The notes: generated from the letters alone by a model not told the origin. DNA of 64,000 bases from Thermoproteota archaeon (GCA_027492205.1 JAOZFN010000007.1:303112-367111), one strand, 5' to 3'; counted from the stretch's first letter, positions 1,587 to 58,296 are shown. Made by a program: numbers and translations.

Positions 1587-1690
1587 TGGTGGACCGGGCG
1601 GGATTTGAACCCGCGAGCCTCCCGCAGATTAGGCCGGCCTAAAAGGCCAGCTTGCCAAGCGGGCGCTCTACCAGGCTGAGCTACCGGCCC
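1587..1690 (-). tRNA. tRNA-Ala(GGC) with 26-nt canonical 37/38 intron (1627-1652), encoded CCA
   Basis: GGGCCGGTAGCTCAGCCTGGTAGAGCG...CCCGC-TTGGCA[intron]T-GCGGG...GGTTCAAATCC...CCGGTCCACCA; BHB helix TTGG/CTAA with 3-nt bulges. Confidence 0.95.
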
Positions 1691-27489: not shown

Positions 27490-28260
27490 GAATCCTCCTC
27501 TCGCGCGTGGGGTATCCACAAGGCGGTATCGGCCGTCCGGCACGCTCTCAGGGCCGCTTCCAGCGGTGAGAGGGTCCTCTATGTCTCGGTCACGCGCGGC
27601 CCCCGGCGTATCAGGGAGGCCGCGGAGCGCCTCGGAGTGGGCCTTTGGGAATTTGAGGAGCGCGGACTTCTGAGGCTCCTCCGCATCACGCCTGCCGCAA
27701 GGCAGGAGGGGGCCCAGCAAGCTCTGCTGGACTTCACAGAGGAGCTGAGGTCCTTCTCACCCGACCTGTCGTCATAGAAGGGCCGCGCTCTGTTCGCCAA
27801 CCTGTGCCTCTACACGCTTTTTGGGCCCTTCGGGGAAGGGTTCTACGGTTGGCAGAGGAGGGCGAGCTCGCCGACGTGGTCATCGCGAACGAAGAAGGAC
27901 TCGACCTCAACCCGGCTGCCAAGCAGTTCACCGTGGAGATGAGCAACGTGGTCGTCCGACTCGGCTGGGGGAAGATCGAGAACGTCCGAGTGAGGACCAT
28001 GAACATCTGAAGCGTTGGACTCGAGGTGGCCAGGCCTTCTCGGGAGTTCGTAATCTCCAAGGAGCTTGGAGGGGCCCTGGTGCTGGCCATCACCCGCAGC
28101 CTGTACGACCTCCCCGGTCGGGGAATCCCATTAGCTTGTGGTGAAGAAGCTGAAGGAACTCCTCGGAGGCGAGATCCCACGTGGATCCGTGACCGCGATA
28201 GTCGGTGGAACCGGCGCGGGCAAGGGGGAGCTGGCCGACATCTCGGCCGAGGTGCGAAAC
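27490..28260 (+). pseudogene. Decayed KaiC/RecA-superfamily ATPase (double domain)
   Basis: Fragments GERVLYVSV...AERLGVGLWEFEERGLL; NVVVRLG...REFVIS; LLGGEIPRGSVTAIVGGTGAGK, spread over different frames with stops. Confidence 0.7.
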
Positions 28261-28416
28261 GCGGTGGGAGGGTCCACGTGCTTAGCTTCGACCTGCCATG
28301 GTCCGACGTTGAGGCGCTCCCAAGGGGTCGAAGGGCGCGGTCATGCTGGTGGAGGGGGGTCCAGCCGTCCGGGGAGTTCGTCAAGAGCGCGGTGCGTCAA
28401 GCGACCACGCGCATTG

Positions 28417-28554
28417 CGAGAGCCTCGGCATCAGCTGGCTGAATCTCCATCGCGGGATATTGCGAATGAGAACCCCCGAGGGTGGGAGTGCGATCTGGGC
28501 CTGGTTGCCCAAGACCAAACCGCATCCGCCTTGCGGGCGGAGTTGCCCTCCCGA
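28417..28554 (-). ncRNA. Candidate structured ncRNA, copy 1 (homologous to 31977-32144)
   Basis: Shared blocks with copy 2, three-way junction with GNRA-type loops, TTTAAATA box at 28575-28582. Confidence 0.6.
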
Positions 28555-28691
28555 TATCGATTGGAGGGCGGGAGTATTTAAAGTAAGGGGGTCAAGCTGC
28601 GGAGATAGAACGTAAGAGAAGCCTTTGAATCGCATTCCGGCCTGTCGAGCTCGCTTTAAGTGGAAATGGGGTTACCTCCGAGACCTAGCCC

Positions 28692-29057
28692 TCAGCCCCT
28701 GGCCTTCACCAGCAGCCAGTTCTCCGACCCTCTCATCCTGATCAGGGCGTACTTGCCCCTCATCCTCCCTCCCCTGGCCACGAAGGTGATCTTGTCTGGG
28801 GTTCTCTCGAGGAGTTCGTACTCGCCCCGATCCCATATCCTGACCTCTCCTGCCCCGTAGTGCCCCTCGGGAATCACCCCCTCGAAGTCCGCATACTCCA
28901 GCGGGTGGTCCTCGGTCTGCACCGCCAGCCTCCTCACTCCCGGCTCCGTCGGGATCCCCTTCGGAATGGCCCACGACTTGAGGACGCCGTCCATCTCCAG
29001 CCTCAGGTCCCAGTGCAGCCTCCTCGCGTGGTGCTCTTGGACGACGAATATGGGCAT
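28692..29057 (-). CDS. Stand-alone LigD 3'-phosphoesterase (PE) domain protein
   Basis: FVVQEHHARRLHWDLRLE..GVLKSWAIPKG...TEDHPLEY...GHYGAG...WDRG. Confidence 0.93.
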   Translation of the reverse strand: MPIFVVQEHHARRLHWDLRLEMDGVLKSWAIPKGIPTEPGVRRLAVQTEDHPLEYADFEGVIPEGHYGAGEVRIWDRGEYELLERTPDKITFVARGGRMRGKYALIRMRGSENWLLVKARG

Positions 29058-29175
29058 GCCCGGTCTGGTAGCCAACGCCGCGGGCCCTTTTTAGTCACGC
29101 TCCTCATTTTCAGAGGAGCTCCCGTCGGAGGTGGGCTTATTACGCGGCCGGCGGCGGGCTCGGAGGGAAGCGCCC

Positions 29176-30465
29176 TTGCCCGGCATAGTGGTCGTTGGGA
29201 TGCAGTTCGGGGATGAGAGCAAGGGGGCCGTCGTGGACTACCTGTCCAGGGATGCAGACCTCGTGGTGAGGTACAACGGCGGGGCCAACGCGGGCCACAC
29301 AGTCGCCACCGGAGACCTGAGGCTCAAGTTCCGCCTCATGCCGTCCGGCGCCCTCTGGGGAAAGAGGCTCGTCATCGGAAATGGGGTCGTGGTGGATCCA
29401 AAGGTCCTGCTGGACGAGATTAAGGCTCTGAGGGAGGTGGGCGTGGAGCCGAACCTGCTGTTGAGCAGGAAGGCCCACGTGGTCATGCCCTACCACAAGG
29501 TCATAGACGCCGGCAAGATGGCCGGATCGCTGGGCACCACCAAGAGGGGGATAGGCCCGACCTACGCCGACAAGGCCAGGAGGACCGACGCGATCAGGGT
29601 GGACGATCTCGTGGGGCCGAGGTTCAGGGAGAGACTCGAGTCCGTGCTCAGGTTCAAGCTGGACGAACTCGTCGCCTACGGCATCGTGAGGAGGGAGGAG
29701 GACCTTCCCAAGTACCTTGAGGAGGTCTACGGGGAGTACTCGGAGTACGGAAGGGAACTCAGGCCCTACGCGGGCGAGGCCTACCTCGAGGTGAACCGGG
29801 CCCTGGACGAGGGCAAGGTCGTCCTGTTCGAGGGGGCCCAGGGCACCCTGCTGGACTTGGACCACGGGACCTACCCCTACGTCACCTCCTCAAACCCCGT
29901 GGCCGGAGGGGCGTGCGTTGGAGTGGGGGTCGGGCCCACCAGGATAGACAGGGTGATAGGCGTGGCCAAGGCCTACACCACCAGGGTGGGCGCGGGTCCG
30001 TTCCCGACGGAGATCCACGACGAGCTCGGCGACAGGATCAGGGAGAGGGGAGGCGAGTACGGCACCGTGACGGGGAGGCCCAGGAGGTGCGGGTGGCTCG
30101 ACCTGCCCATGCTCAGGTACTCGATCATGATCAACGGGATCACCGAGATCGCCCTCCGCAAGCTGGACGTGCTGGGCGGGACAAGGCCCCTGAAGGTGGC
30201 CGTGGCGTACGAGATCGACGGCGAGGAGAGGGAGGTCATGACGCCCTTCGTCTCCGACCTGGAGAGGGTGAGGCCCGTCTACGAGGAGCTGGACGGGTGG
30301 GAAGAGCTCTCTCCGGGTGAGTGGGGGAGGGTTGCGAGGCGGGGGTACGACGCCCTCCCGAGGGGCGCGAGGGACTACGTGGAGTTCATCGAGGAGAGGC
30401 TCGGCGTGCCCGTGACGATGGTGGGCGTGGGTCCGAGGCGGGAGGACACCATCGAGAGGGTGTAA
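29176..30465 (+). CDS. purA: Adenylosuccinate synthetase
   Basis: QFGDESKG, RYNGGANAGHT, GTTKRGIGP, EGAQG, GTYPYVTSS, GTVTGRPRRCGW. Confidence 0.97.
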   Translation: MPGIVVVGMQFGDESKGAVVDYLSRDADLVVRYNGGANAGHTVATGDLRLKFRLMPSGALWGKRLVIGNGVVVDPKVLLDEIKALREVGVEPNLLLSRKAHVVMPYHKVIDAGKMAGSLGTTKRGIGPTYADKARRTDAIRVDDLVGPRFRERLESVLRFKLDELVAYGIVRREEDLPKYLEEVYGEYSEYGRELRPYAGEAYLEVNRALDEGKVVLFEGAQGTLLDLDHGTYPYVTSSNPVAGGACVGVGVGPTRIDRVIGVAKAYTTRVGAGPFPTEIHDELGDRIRERGGEYGTVTGRPRRCGWLDLPMLRYSIMINGITEIALRKLDVLGGTRPLKVAVAYEIDGEEREVMTPFVSDLERVRPVYEELDGWEELSPGEWGRVARRGYDALPRGARDYVEFIEERLGVPVTMVGVGPRREDTIERV

Positions 30466-30805
30466 CCTAGATCTCTGCCGAAGGGAGGCGCCTGGTGTCC
30501 AAGGGGATTACTATGGGGTCTGCTGTACCGCGCGGGGGAGCCTGGCGGTTCTGGCGGAGGTTATCTTTTCGTACCGGGTCTCCTGCCATCGACGGCCTTC
30601 GCAGTTTGTCTGGACGTACGAGGTTGCCGCGAGGGTGGAGGACCCAAGAGTGGCTCCATACCACGGGACCTGGACGCTGCAACCCGACACCGAGAGCACG
30701 TCAGCCCGTTTTTTCTACATACCCACAACCTTCGGGAGGTCCGAGGCGGGATGTCGGACCGGGGAGGCGCGAGCGATAAAATATGAGACCCAGGTTTAGC
30801 TCGCG

Positions 30806-31387
30806 GTGCGAGGAGCGTTGTTGGGAGGCCGCGGGCGATTGGCTCTCCTCTTGGCTGCAGGGTTTGCGGCCGCTGCCCTGGCGTACGCGGCCTTGAAAGG
30901 CCCGGAAAGGCCCCCCTCCGCGGCGCGGATCGAGCTCTCGAGTCCCGCCTTCGAGGGAGGAGGAGTCATCCCGAGGAGGTACACCTGCGACGGCGAGGAC
31001 GTCTCCCCTCCGCTAGAGTGGGGCGATCTCCCGGAGGGAACCCTGTCCCTGGCGCTGATAGTTTTCGATCCAGACGCCCCGGGTGGCGAGTTCACACACT
31101 GGTTGATCTACGGGATCCCCGCCGACGTCGGGGGGCTTCCCGAGGGAGTTCCCGGTGAGGGGGTCGTCGCCGGCCTGGGAACCCAGGGCCGGAACGACTT
31201 CGGGAGGATAGGGTACGGCGGTCCGTGCCCACCCCCGGGCCCCGCGCATCGGTACGTCTTCAGGCTCTTCGCCCTCGACGCGGAGCTCGACCTGCCGCCC
31301 GGAATCACCAGGGGCGAGCTGGAGGCGGCCGTTGAGGGGCACGTCTTGGGCGTGGGGGAGCTGGTAGGCCTGTACTCAAGGCCGTGA
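30806..31387 (+). CDS. YbhB/YbcL (PEBP) family protein
   Basis: YTCDG..SPPL.W, DPDAP, HW, GYGGPCPP, HRYVF. Confidence 0.93.
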   Translation: MRGALLGGRGRLALLLAAGFAAAALAYAALKGPERPPSAARIELSSPAFEGGGVIPRRYTCDGEDVSPPLEWGDLPEGTLSLALIVFDPDAPGGEFTHWLIYGIPADVGGLPEGVPGEGVVAGLGTQGRNDFGRIGYGGPCPPPGPAHRYVFRLFALDAELDLPPGITRGELEAAVEGHVLGVGELVGLYSRP

Positions 31388-31405
31388 GACTGGAGGCGCG
31401 CGGCC

Positions 31406-31966
31406 ATGGGCTACAGGGCCCACCTGCTGGCGGGGGGAGCGGTAGGGGTCGCCGCGGCCCTGACGCTCCGGGGCCTTGGCCTGAGTTCGGCGGGGGGCCT
31501 CTGCCCCGTGCTGGTCGTGGCATTCGCCCCCCTGGGCGCGCTGCTCCCCGACCTCGACGTGACCTCCTCGAAGGTCAGCAGACTGTCCGGGGCTCTGGCC
31601 GTCGGCTTCGTCGCCTGGGCTCTGATCTCTGAGGGGCCGCTGAGGTACTTCGCGCTCTGGTGGGTCGGGGTCGTCGTGGTAGGGTCGACGCTCGGCCCAC
31701 TAGGCAGACACAGGTCGGCGTTCCACTGGGTCATCCCGGTCCTCCTGATCGTCCCCCTCCTCTTCTCTCACTGGGCGCTAGAAGGCGAGGTGTCGGGGCC
31801 GCTCGACTTAAGCGGCCTCCACCTCCTGTTGACGTCCCCTCTGGAGGAGTTCCGGGCGATCTGGGCCTCCTCTTGGCCCGGCGGCCCCCTGACCCCGGAG
31901 TTCTGCGCAACCGTAGGCGCGGTCCTCGGGGCCCTCTCTCACCTCTCTCTGGACCTGTACTTCTGA
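31406..31966 (+). CDS. YdjM-like membrane metal-dependent hydrolase
   Basis: YRAH, GALLPDLD, HRSAFH, SHLSLD. Confidence 0.85.
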   Translation: MGYRAHLLAGGAVGVAAALTLRGLGLSSAGGLCPVLVVAFAPLGALLPDLDVTSSKVSRLSGALAVGFVAWALISEGPLRYFALWWVGVVVVGSTLGPLGRHRSAFHWVIPVLLIVPLLFSHWALEGEVSGPLDLSGLHLLLTSPLEEFRAIWASSWPGGPLTPEFCATVGAVLGALSHLSLDLYF

Positions 31967-31976
31967 GTCCGGTGGT

Positions 31977-32144
31977 CGAGGGGTCTCGGCGCCTGATGCG
32001 GTCCCGTTAAGCTTGGAAGGGCCGCAAAGCCTGTTCAGGCGCAGAGTACATTGGAACGAGACCCCTTGAGGGTGGGAGAGCGATCCATTCCTCAGTTGCC
32101 CGAGGTGAGATCGCCTCCGCCTTTCGGCGGAGTTGCCCTCCCGA
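31977..32144 (-). ncRNA. Candidate structured ncRNA, copy 2
   Basis: GGGAGGGCAACTCCGCC-GAAA-GGCGGAG...CCTCGG-GCAA-CTGAGG...CTCCC; TTTAAATA box at 32163-32170. Confidence 0.6.
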
Positions 32145-32485
32145 GCCACTTCCCGGCCCGGGTATTTAAACTAGGGGGCGCCGTCGCACGCGCGCGGAGG
32201 GCGGCCCGCGGGCCGGAGGGACATCGGTCTCGCCCTCCACTTCCGTTCGCTGGACCGATAGGTCTTCCACTCGTCTCGGGAGGATCGTTCACTTGTGGTC
32301 GCTGACCATAATGCGGCGGTCGCCGACCTTGAGACGCGTAAGGGCGTCCGTCGGAGGGATGAGAGGCGCCGCGCGCGTGCCGAGAGAGGTATAAAATGGC
32401 ACGCGCCGCGAATGAGTAAGCTGTTGTTCCTTCGGTCTTCTCGGACGGTTAAACCTGGGGAGAGGGCTCACGGCTCCTCGATCCT

Positions 32486-58189: not shown

Positions 58190-58296
58190 TGGTGGGCCCG
58201 GCGGGACTTGAACCCGCGACCTCCCGCTTTTCCCCTGGCTTGTGGCGGGAGCCGCCATATAAGGCGGGCGCTCTATCCAGGCTGAGCCACGGGCCC
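58190..58296 (-). tRNA. tRNA-Ile(UAU) with 29-nt intron (about 58230-58258), encoded CCA
   Basis: Ile-type body GGGCCCGTGGCTCAGCC...GGGCCCA-CCA; stem CCCGC/GCGGG; mature loop CT-TAT-AA. Confidence 0.85.

Follow-up and report, generated by a model that had tools for sequence, protein, structure and literature searches.

A candidate structured RNA family with a three-way junction and conserved TATA boxes in two related genera of uncultured Thermoproteota

Introduction

Several described RNAs offer points of comparison for a small three-way-junction RNA in an archaeon. The Hgc RNAs are orphan archaeal structured sRNAs that came from comparative genomics and have no assigned function. The c-di-GMP-I aptamers (RF01051, with the c-di-GMP-I-GGC variant, RF03167) are three-helix junctions in which J2/3 is a conserved multi-nucleotide strand. 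In the S domain of archaeal SRP RNA (RF01857; helices 5, 6 and 8), a closing helix carries two adjacent hairpins with GNRA/GNAR-type loops; the SRP is normally universal. TnpB/IscB omega-RNAs, like other scaffold-plus-guide RNAs, join a constant structured portion to a 3′ guide.

Here we describe two copies of an RNA element in a Thermoproteota genome that shares features with each of these and matches none of them. The window, the whole 64,000-nt stretch of DNA analysed, contains both copies within about 4 kb (Table 1). Like the orphan archaeal sRNAs, the element is GC-rich, stable, lineage-restricted and, as we infer, independently transcribed; unlike them it has a distinct three-way-junction architecture and no sequence or covariance-model (CM) similarity to Rfam families. 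An earlier sequence-only reading of the locus had proposed an unannotated, independently promoted family of structured noncoding RNA, and TATA boxes, covariation and the lack of an Rfam match all uphold that proposal.

Table 1. Positions of the two RNA copies, their parts and their neighbours in the window.
Feature	Position	Strand	Basis
KaiC-like pseudogene, converged on by copy 1	27511..28319	+	tblastn
Copy 1 3′ extension	28385..28460	-	alignments
Copy 1 tail: A, mini-hairpin CCCUCGGGGG, pyrimidine-rich run UUCUCAUUC	28461..28483	-	Alifold, tail comparison
Copy 1 core, 69-nt three-way junction	28484..28552	-	CM matches, fold, covariation
Copy 1 P1	28548-28552 paired with 28484-28488	-	
Copy 1 J1/2, GGCAAC	28542-28547	-	
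Copy 1 P2 (CGCAA loop)	28525-28541	-	
Copy 1 P3 (GCAA loop)	28490-28523	-	
Copy 1 TATA box, TTTAAATA	28575..28582	-	22 nt upstream of G1; read directly
Conserved non-coding block directly upstream of copy 1 promoter	28585..28700	.	alignments
YdjM-family membrane protein gene, converged on by copy 2	31406..31966	+	PF04307, E 3.7e-08
Copy 2 long hairpin P4 (AGGGGUCUCG...CGAGACCCCU)	31979..32066	-	fold, alignment
Copy 2 tail: A, mini-hairpin CCCUCAAGGGG, then UCUCGUUCC	32053..32073	-	Alifold, folds, tail comparison
Copy 2 core, 69-nt three-way junction	32074..32142	-	CM matches, MFE fold, covariation
Copy 2 P1	32138-32142 paired with 32074-32078	-	
Copy 2 J1/2	32132-32137	-	
Copy 2 P2 (GAAA loop)	32116-32131	-	
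Copy 2 P3 (GCAA loop)	32080-32113	-	
Copy 2 TATA box, TTTAAATA	32163..32170	-	20 nt upstream of G1

Results

Two copies with a common fold, strand and promoter

The sequence-only reading rested on blocks shared between the copies. Positions 28536-28554 and 32126-32144 share an identical 19-nt block, GGCGGAGTTGCCCTCCCGA, and 84% identity is seen over 32 nt between 28464-28495 and 32054-32085, the spacing being 3590 nt in both cases. Within the 1.94-Mb genome, exact matches to a 17-nt core occur at the two copies only; allowing two mismatches adds three sites, the same number as a reversed-pattern control. The three-way junction that had been proposed is recovered in both minus-strand folds and is composed of P1 (GGGAG/CUCCC), J1/2 (GGCAAC), P2 (UCCGCC/GGCGGA) and a GCAA-capped P3. 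Copy 1 has a folding z-score of -3.29 and copy 2 one of -6.46, and none of 200 shuffled sequences folds as well. Copy 1 scores 98.5 bits with covariance model R1 and 87 bits with R2, and copy 2 scores 96.5 and 93.9 bits, respectively. A pairing of the 5′ GAGGG with CCCUC in the tail was considered and rejected; the tail is unchanged in members that have C at position 4.

Many G-U pairs of the alignment would become mismatches on the plus strand, and the 97-nt cores fold more stably on the minus strand (-45.1 versus -37.2 kcal/mol for copy 1, -49.2 versus -40.8 kcal/mol for copy 2); the minus strand is therefore the RNA strand. Each copy has the TTTAAATA box 20-22 nt upstream of its first G, as had been claimed, and the arrangement is general: TTTAAATA, TTTATATA or TTTTTATA with a 20-22-nt spacer is found in all 16 members whose upstream sequence is available; a contig end cuts the 17th. 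The box is kept despite unrelated flanks between paralogue types. Directly upstream of the copy 1 promoter lies a non-coding block of which about 60 nt are kept in all six c1-type loci and about 115 nt in four of the six. It occurs once in the genome, has no Rfam match, and is possibly a regulatory site or a divergent transcript.

Both copies point at the 3′ ends of plus-strand neighbours, in agreement with the sequence-only reading: copy 1 at a KaiC-like pseudogene, which is frameshifted, gives tblastn matches in differing frames and lacks its C-terminal third, and copy 2 at a YdjM-family gene. ORFs at the pseudogene have no Pfam match. Genes for KaiC-superfamily ATPases recur loosely near copies of the element; they are not orthologous. 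Most copies in the window's genus lie directly against a plus-strand gene at its 3′ end, an arrangement that would suit a cis element of those genes, such as a 3′ UTR structure or bidirectional terminator, in place of a separate RNA gene. We regard this as highly improbable, since the G-U pairs and GNRA loops fit the minus strand only, the minus-strand TATA box stands at a fixed distance in 16 of 16 members, and the convergent partners differ (KaiC pseudogene, YdjM, DUF1028, methyltransferase), with none at all in the second genus. The two genera share no conserved gene neighbour.

A family in two genera, with covariation in three helices

Covariance models R1 and R2, together with pattern searches, define a family of 20 sequences, 17 of them distinct. 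Of 43 genomes from the phylum, 7 contain the RNA: four of five genomes of the window's genus, g1, carry two copies each (G000, G001, G003 and G004), and three of five genomes of a second genus, g2, carry one each (G005, G009 and G012). In metagenome contigs, CM matches coincide with 7 of 10 pattern loci; the other pattern matches (L064, L065 and L068) are chance occurrences without a CM match. Searches of this genome and its relatives with a covariance model, suggested when the copies were noticed, have thus yielded further members in g1, g2 and metagenome contigs. Outside g1 and g2, R1 and R2 found no member in the remaining 32 genomes from the phylum, in searches that scored about 100-150 first-look candidates per genome, so that divergent members elsewhere could escape. 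Weak CM matches in G023, G007, G021 and G019 (E 0.29-0.99) and in G013 and G019 (E 1.15 and 4.08) were rejected on inspection of the alignments. The family was not matched in viral contigs, phage records or plasmid records, and a literature search that did not extend to full texts returned nothing on this three-way-junction RNA or on SRP loss in the group.

Further copies bear out the covariation anticipated from the two in the window. In a model-fitted alignment (A5), 94.9% of cells pair, compared with 85.8% when shuffled, and 12 of 27 pairs show compensatory changes; the observed values were reached by none of 500 shuffles, a control that overstates support where sequences are related. In a structure-blind MAFFT alignment (A6), 99.3% of cells pair, compared with 39-54% when the partner strand is slid, and 6 of 17 pairs are compensatory. 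Compensatory changes are present in all three helices. Position 4 of P1 is A-U in nine sequences and C-G in eight, and the compensatory pair of P2 is C-G in 14 and U-A in three (both in A6), although the 17 sequences represent few lineages, so that P1 and P2 may each have changed only once. P1, the junction strand GGYAAC and P2 are nearly invariant in sequence, whereas P3 varies freely in length and sequence. J2/3 and J3/1 are one nucleotide each, and variable.

Comparison with known RNA families

At gathering thresholds, Rfam finds only three tRNAs in the window, all at other sites. At E <= 10 the sole match inside a copy is a local one of 18.6 bits to the P2 hairpin, where the gathering score is 59, and five other member loci give no match at E <= 1. 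Known ribozyme models match neither the copies at E <= 10 nor those five loci at E <= 1. The RNase P RNA of the genome was located on contig C12 (99.1 bits), separate from the RNAs on C9. Comparison of the copies with Rfam covariance models, one of the checks proposed for the locus, accordingly places the family in none of the known ones. Readings as a K-turn, H/ACA, C/D-box or tRNA-like RNA were dropped after a by-eye check showed their motifs to be unconserved.

The single local match, a weak one that takes in P2 and its flanks, is to the c-di-GMP-I-GGC model (RF03167), and there is a likeness to c-di-GMP-I aptamers in the three-helix junction and in a G-rich strand that ends in CAAC/CAAAC and is followed by a short GAAA-capped hairpin. 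Conserved junction nucleotides with variable distal stems are, moreover, an aptamer pattern. These features would fit a ligand-sensing, riboswitch-like RNA or a catalytic RNA acting alone, with the invariant junction as its pocket or active site, but we consider such a function unlikely. The match covers model positions 12-35 of 80 only and falls short of a full-length score. J2/3 is a single nucleotide here, and single variable nucleotides at J2/3 and J3/1 leave little for a pocket; no ribozyme or riboswitch model rises above noise. The RNA is archaeal, has its own promoter and lacks a downstream gene to regulate: in g1 no gene follows on the same strand, and the gene that comes next in g2 has a separate promoter-like box, itself conserved.

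The sequence 3′ of the scaffold

Beyond P1′ the members diverge. The tail of copy 1 is likely to be the 3′ end or terminator region of the RNA; the three pairs of its mini-hairpin, predicted by Alifold, are retained by 6, 6 and 7 of the seven sequences compared. The 3′ extension that follows is conserved in close orthologues only (G001, L071), cannot be aligned with G004_c1 or L063, and may represent read-through or a lineage-specific domain. The sequence-only reading had placed a P4 helix after both scaffolds. In copy 2 this hairpin was recovered in the fold. Its conservation, which includes compensatory changes in the inner stem, is confined to the three c2-type orthologues, and the other 14 members lack it; the 5′ strand of P4 competes with the mini-hairpin of the tail. 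The G-U-rich P4 proposed for copy 1 is not the minimum-energy fold and is unconserved beyond close relatives. Where U-tracts come immediately after P1′, as in g2 copies and the G004-lineage second paralogue, the RNA probably consists of the scaffold alone.

A constant scaffold with a variable, guide-like region had also been proposed, and this layout is not supported: the 3′ part can be aligned among close orthologues only, and elsewhere U-tracts come right after the scaffold. The sequences do not support a variable 3′ region as a feature of the family. As in omega-RNAs, the 3′ part does differ between the two paralogues beside a structured constant part, and the genome encodes three TnpB-like proteins, so that a guide-type RNA, whose 5′ scaffold binds an effector while the 3′ region pairs with a nucleic-acid target, deserves consideration. 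It nevertheless appears quite unlikely. The TnpB-like (PF07282) genes are on C11, C3 and C12, whereas the RNAs are on C9 and adjoin no effector gene; the 3′ parts are conserved between orthologues and not hypervariable; and the proposed search for targets of the variable inserts returned, in the organism's own genome, complements of the c1 and c2 3′ parts that are 13-15-nt chance matches (E >= 0.24). The possession of a TATA box and the presence of only one or two copies per genome further distinguish the family from omega-RNAs.

Low copy number also weighs against a mobile RNA, another suggestion of the sequence-only reading that we now consider unlikely. The genome has two copies, inverted repeats are absent from both flanks of each, as would not be expected of an IS end or MITE, and viral, phage and plasmid sequences give no match. 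The copies form direct repeats at a distance of 3590 nt, their surroundings are rearranged between species, and the KaiC-like gene is truncated at copy 1, all of which might suggest a mobile-element remnant or a 3.6-kb insert bounded by an integration (att) duplication. That origin is extremely improbable, however: both copies are full length with their own promoters, housekeeping genes (purA, PEBP, YdjM) lie between them, neither has terminal inverted repeats, and both paralogues are kept in all four RNA-bearing g1 genomes.

SRP components in RNA-bearing genomes

SRP RNA, SRP54, FtsY and SRP19 are undetectable in 11 of 11 genomes of three genera, every RNA-bearing genome included, and are found in relatives of those genera. 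PF02978, PF01922 and PF00448 are absent from G000, and tblastn of a relative's SRP54 against G000 gave a best E of 0.005. The two distributions are complementary: seven of the ten g1 and g2 genomes, which all lack SRP54, FtsY and SRP19, carry the RNA, and none of the 25 SRP-positive genomes in g3 and g5 does. There is also a loose resemblance to the h5/h6/h8 S domain in the way that a single helix closes two neighbouring hairpins with GNRA caps. The RNA might on these grounds be a relic of SRP RNA, or its functional successor in a clade without canonical SRP. Structure and context make this very unlikely. The hairpins are very unequal in length, and the helix-8 motifs of 12 relatives' SRP RNAs (GGAA loop, AGCA) are missing. 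CM similarity is seen in neither direction, R2 scoring at most 11.1 bits on either strand of the 12 SRP RNA loci and the SRP model finding no match at E <= 10 in positions 28300-32300 of the window. Neither SRP54 nor FtsY remains as a partner, SRP19 is absent as well, and the RNA is not at the syntenic DRG-RpiA site. Genus g4, which is SRP-less, also lacks the RNA, and the pattern may be mere shared ancestry of g1 and g2.

Discussion

We propose that the two copies are paralogous genes of a new small structured RNA that acts in trans as a scaffold and is probably protein-bound, a reading to which we assign a probability of roughly 0.55. Transcription of each copy would begin at G1 of GGGAGGG under the control of a separate archaeal TATA promoter. 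We predict the functional unit to be a Y-shaped scaffold of 69 nt (as much as about 82 nt in the second genus), built from the 5-bp P1, the 6-nt junction strand GGYAAC, a 6-bp P2 hairpin with a GNRA-type loop, and P3, a long GNRA-capped arm of variable length in which only pairing is kept. The pattern of conservation suggests that P1, J1/2 and P2 form a module recognised sequence-specifically by a partner in trans, most probably a protein, with P3 as a structural arm. The lineage-specific 3′ sequence, whether a mini-hairpin with a pyrimidine run, plain U-tracts or the long hairpin of copy 2, would serve termination or stability and not guiding.

To our knowledge, uncultured hyperthermophile-type archaea have so far yielded few structured RNA families. 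The present family is previously undescribed and was found only in two related uncultured genera and in metagenome contigs, and its comparative support is unusually clean, with a promoter, a defined strand and covariation in three helices. The sharp division between an invariant module and a free arm makes it a good target in the search for a new RNA-protein partnership.

We know of no free-living archaeal lineage without SRP, and if the absence seen here is real, this would be the first. It would then be of interest how membrane proteins are targeted and whether lineage-specific RNAs are involved. Very tentatively, the element could be the RNA component of a new ribonucleoprotein that emerged or persisted in the SRP-less clade, either as a much reduced descendant of SRP RNA or as part of a replacement for co-translational targeting.

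Results

The two predicted RNA genes lie on the minus strand as direct repeats spaced 3590 nt apart (within positions 28200-32400 of the window). The identical blocks noticed in the sequence-only reading were recovered, with a 19-nt block identical between the copies and a 32-nt block 84% identical. Minus-strand alignment over 242 columns gives 76% mean column identity, and nearly all of this identity falls in the first ~75 nt and the upstream TTTAAATA box. Exact matches to a 17-nt core number two in the 1.94-Mb genome, and allowing two mismatches yields three sites, the same number as a reversed control pattern. Both copies fold on this strand into the three-way junction proposed earlier (helices P1, P2 and P3), with full-length z-scores of -3.29 for copy 1 and -6.46 for copy 2 and none of 200 shuffles as stable; the 97-nt cores reach -45.1 and -49.2 kcal/mol on the minus strand versus -37.2 and -40.8 on the plus strand.

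Features of the window (window coordinates)
Feature	Position	Strand	Remark
tRNA gene	1590-1690		intron
KaiC-like pseudogene	27511-28319	+	converged on by copy 1
Copy 1, 69-nt core	28552 (first G, G1) to 28484	-	
Conserved non-coding block	28585-28700		directly upstream of copy 1 TATA box
LigD-type 3′-phosphoesterase gene	28692-29075	-	copy 1 lies downstream
Copy 2, 69-nt core	32142 (G1) to 32074	-	
tRNA gene	58193-58296	-	intron

The covariation that had been claimed from two copies holds across the family. In a model-fitted alignment, 94.9% of 435 cells pair versus 85.8% in shuffles, and 12 of 27 pairs are changed on both sides, values reached in none of 500 shuffles; sliding the 3′ partners lowers pairing to 34-55%. 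Because this alignment leans towards the model, we repeated the count on a structure-blind MAFFT alignment, counting only P1, P2 and the base of P3 (17 pairs). Here 99.3% of 289 cells pair versus 39-54% when slid. Compensatory changes occur in six of these pairs, although the relatedness of the sequences means that they represent few independent events. At P1 position 4, nine sequences have A-U and eight have C-G; a P2 pair is split between C-G (14) and U-A (three); and at the base of P3, covariation is seen in four of six pairs. G-U pairs are frequent (13 of 17 sequences at one P3 pair); read from the plus strand they would not pair, so minus must be the RNA strand. An alternative pairing of the 5′ GAGGG with a tail CCCUC is refuted, as the tail is ACUUUUC or CCUUUC in those members where position 4 is C, without compensation.

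Each copy had been credited with its own TATA box, and such a box (TTTAAATA, TTTATATA or TTTTTATA) is kept 20-22 nt 5′ of G1 in 16/16 members with upstream sequence, while the sequence around it is unrelated between paralogue types. Archaeal promoter layout places the predicted transcription start at or beside G1. The non-coding block upstream of copy 1 is itself conserved, ~60 nt being kept in six of six copy-1-type loci and ~115 nt in four of them, and its conservation extends to loci with a different neighbouring gene. It matches no Rfam family and occurs once in the genome. A regulator may bind there, or the near-palindromic TATA box may also drive a divergent transcript.

By blastn, clear homologues among 41 related genomes occur in the window's genus (g1) only. 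Covariance models built from seven sequences and rebuilt from eleven scored the same seven genomes in searches of the family (36 genomes), class (40) and phylum (43): four of g1 with two copies each (G000, the window's genome, and G001, G003 and G004) and three of a second genus, g2, with one each (G005, G009 and G012). The g1 and g2 genomes without a match are G002, G015 and G018 (72%, 75% and 71% complete), and there was no scoring match in genera g3 (21 genomes), g4 (one) and g5 (four) or in the seven genomes from other families; when five non-scoring genomes were searched permissively, the best match had 16.3 bits (E 1.15). Since only ~100-150 first-look candidates were scored in each genome, divergent members could have escaped these searches. 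Scanning 185,579 species genomes with an IUPAC pattern gave eight stretches, each in a genome already known to carry the RNA. Ten metagenome stretches matched the pattern. Seven of these contain a model match, two of them in double copy; L064, L065 and L068 lack one and are chance matches. The family totals 20 sequences, 17 of them distinct.

The RNA had been called unannotated, and at Rfam 15 gathering thresholds the 64-kb window yields three tRNAs and nothing else; two of these carry ~28-30 nt insertions, introns, in the anticodon arm region. At E ≤ 10, positions 28300-32300 give nine sub-threshold matches, of which just one falls within a core, where the P2 hairpin locally matches c-di-GMP-I-GGC (18.6 bits; gathering score 59), and five loci with other members have no match at E ≤ 1. 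RNase P RNA lies elsewhere in the genome, on contig C12 (99.1 bits). The analysis lends no support to a ribozyme.

Signal recognition particle (SRP) RNA in disguise was a further candidate. We found no SRP RNA in G000: a profile built from the SRP RNAs of 12 relatives, which recovers 12/12 of its own loci, found nothing with nhmmer at E ≤ 10 by default and at best E 0.85 with --max. After DRG-RpiA, where SRP RNA lies in g3 and g5, no RNA but a convergent gene is present in G000, which encodes SecY.

Detection of SRP components by genus (genomes with a match/genomes searched)
Component	g3	g5	g1	g2	g4
SRP RNA	20/21	4/4	0/5	1/5	0/1
SRP54 M domain	21/21	4/4	0/5	0/5	0/1
SRP-type GTPases (SRP54 and FtsY)	21/21	4/4	0/5	0/5	0/1
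SRP19	20/21	4/4	0/5	0/5	0/1

The single g2 match lies on a 3073-bp contig of G015 (C15; L107), which also holds a tRNA start. The contig is probably a binning contaminant, judging from its 43.8% GC and the lack of blastn likeness between its SRP RNA and those of relatives. The g4 genome, G007, has a sub-threshold SRP RNA match only (22.3 bits), and a weak SRP54 M-domain match in G009 comes from an unrelated membrane protein. All eleven g1, g2 and g4 genomes thus lack every SRP component detectable by the models used, while SRP-type GTPases occur in five of five outgroup genomes. The new RNA occurs only among these eleven. This distribution does not identify it as an SRP RNA: against SRP RNA loci, searched on both strands, its rebuilt model reaches no more than 11.1 bits, the new RNAs are not matched by the SRP model, no SRP proteins are left, and the SRP-less g4 also lacks the RNA. 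The overlap may reflect shared ancestry only. In the portions of the literature available to us we came across neither an account of SRP loss among these archaea nor anything on the new RNA.

Discussion

Our results support an independent structured ncRNA family, with its own promoter element, compensatory pairs and no Rfam counterpart. The sequence-only reading had gone further and proposed a constant scaffold followed by a 3′ helix, P4, enclosing a variable insert, a layout it tied to a guide RNA, ribozyme or mobile RNA. A long P4 hairpin is real in copy 2, where its inner stem covaries among three orthologues, but it is confined to this one paralogue. Its 5′ strand is in competition with a mini-hairpin (CCCUC-N-GRGGG) that, followed by a pyrimidine run, lies downstream of the P1 3′ strand in the GC-rich copy-1 and copy-2 types. 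The 3′ part of copy 1 is alignable with its closest orthologues only. Since the region after P1 splits by lineage and paralogue, a variable insert is no shared family feature. U-tracts directly after P1 (CCUUUC..., ACUUUUC...) in 3/3 g2 members and 4/5 of the second paralogue of the G004 lineage fit archaeal oligo-U termination, with a predicted RNA of ~75-110 nt. A genome search for complements to either RNA gave nothing beyond 13-15-nt chance matches, and the TnpB-like genes lie on contigs other than that of the RNAs (C9); the guide reading is unsupported.

A mobile RNA is likewise unsupported: neither copy is flanked by inverted repeats, and viral contigs, phage records and plasmids contain no family match. 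Each copy does converge on a plus-strand gene or pseudogene, as had been claimed, copy 2 lying downstream of a radical-SAM gene and facing a YdjM-family gene. The KaiC-like pseudogene facing copy 1 is in tblastn pieces in at least two different frames, the C-terminal third being absent. Copy 1 occupies the place of the missing remainder, which suggests a rearrangement breakpoint there. On a G004-lineage metagenome contig two paralogues lie 7 kb apart among the same gene set (purA, PEBP, KaiC, radical SAM) in a different arrangement. The g2 RNA sits between a divergent nitroreductase gene and a GvpD/KaiC-like ATPase gene. An AT-rich box (ATATTTTATTAGA) lies between this ATPase gene and the RNA, ~130-150 nt downstream of G1; it is conserved in 3/3 loci (L044, L045 and L014) and is probably the promoter of the ATPase gene. 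No neighbour gene is conserved across g1 and g2, and the recurring KaiC-superfamily genes are not orthologous, the g2 protein having no match in G000 at 1e-5.

The G004-lineage paralogues (L063:3562-3654 and L063:10578-10669; L043 and L053) have nearly identical P3 arms and differ in P1 (A-U versus C-G), P2 loop and tail, a pattern suggesting that part of the RNA has undergone gene conversion.

Constraint within the RNA is uneven. Near-invariant across both genera are P1 (GGGMG/CKCCC), the J1/2 strand (GGYAAC) and P2 (UYCGCC, loop, GGCGRA), with a GNRA or CGCAA loop on P2, whereas P3 varies from ~34 to ~48 nt, with differing internal loops and GCAA, GAGA, GGAA or GUAAA caps; J2/3 and J3/1 are one variable nucleotide each. 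The YAA of J1/2, lying beside the GAN that ends P2 on its 3′ side, may resemble a recurrent junction motif. An invariant P1-J1/2-P2 corner beside a free P3 points to sequence-specific recognition of that corner by a partner, with P3 as a structural arm. We infer, at somewhat better than even odds (roughly 55%, the claims of existence included), that the most likely mechanism is that of a trans-acting scaffold RNA whose invariant corner would be read by a putative protein partner.
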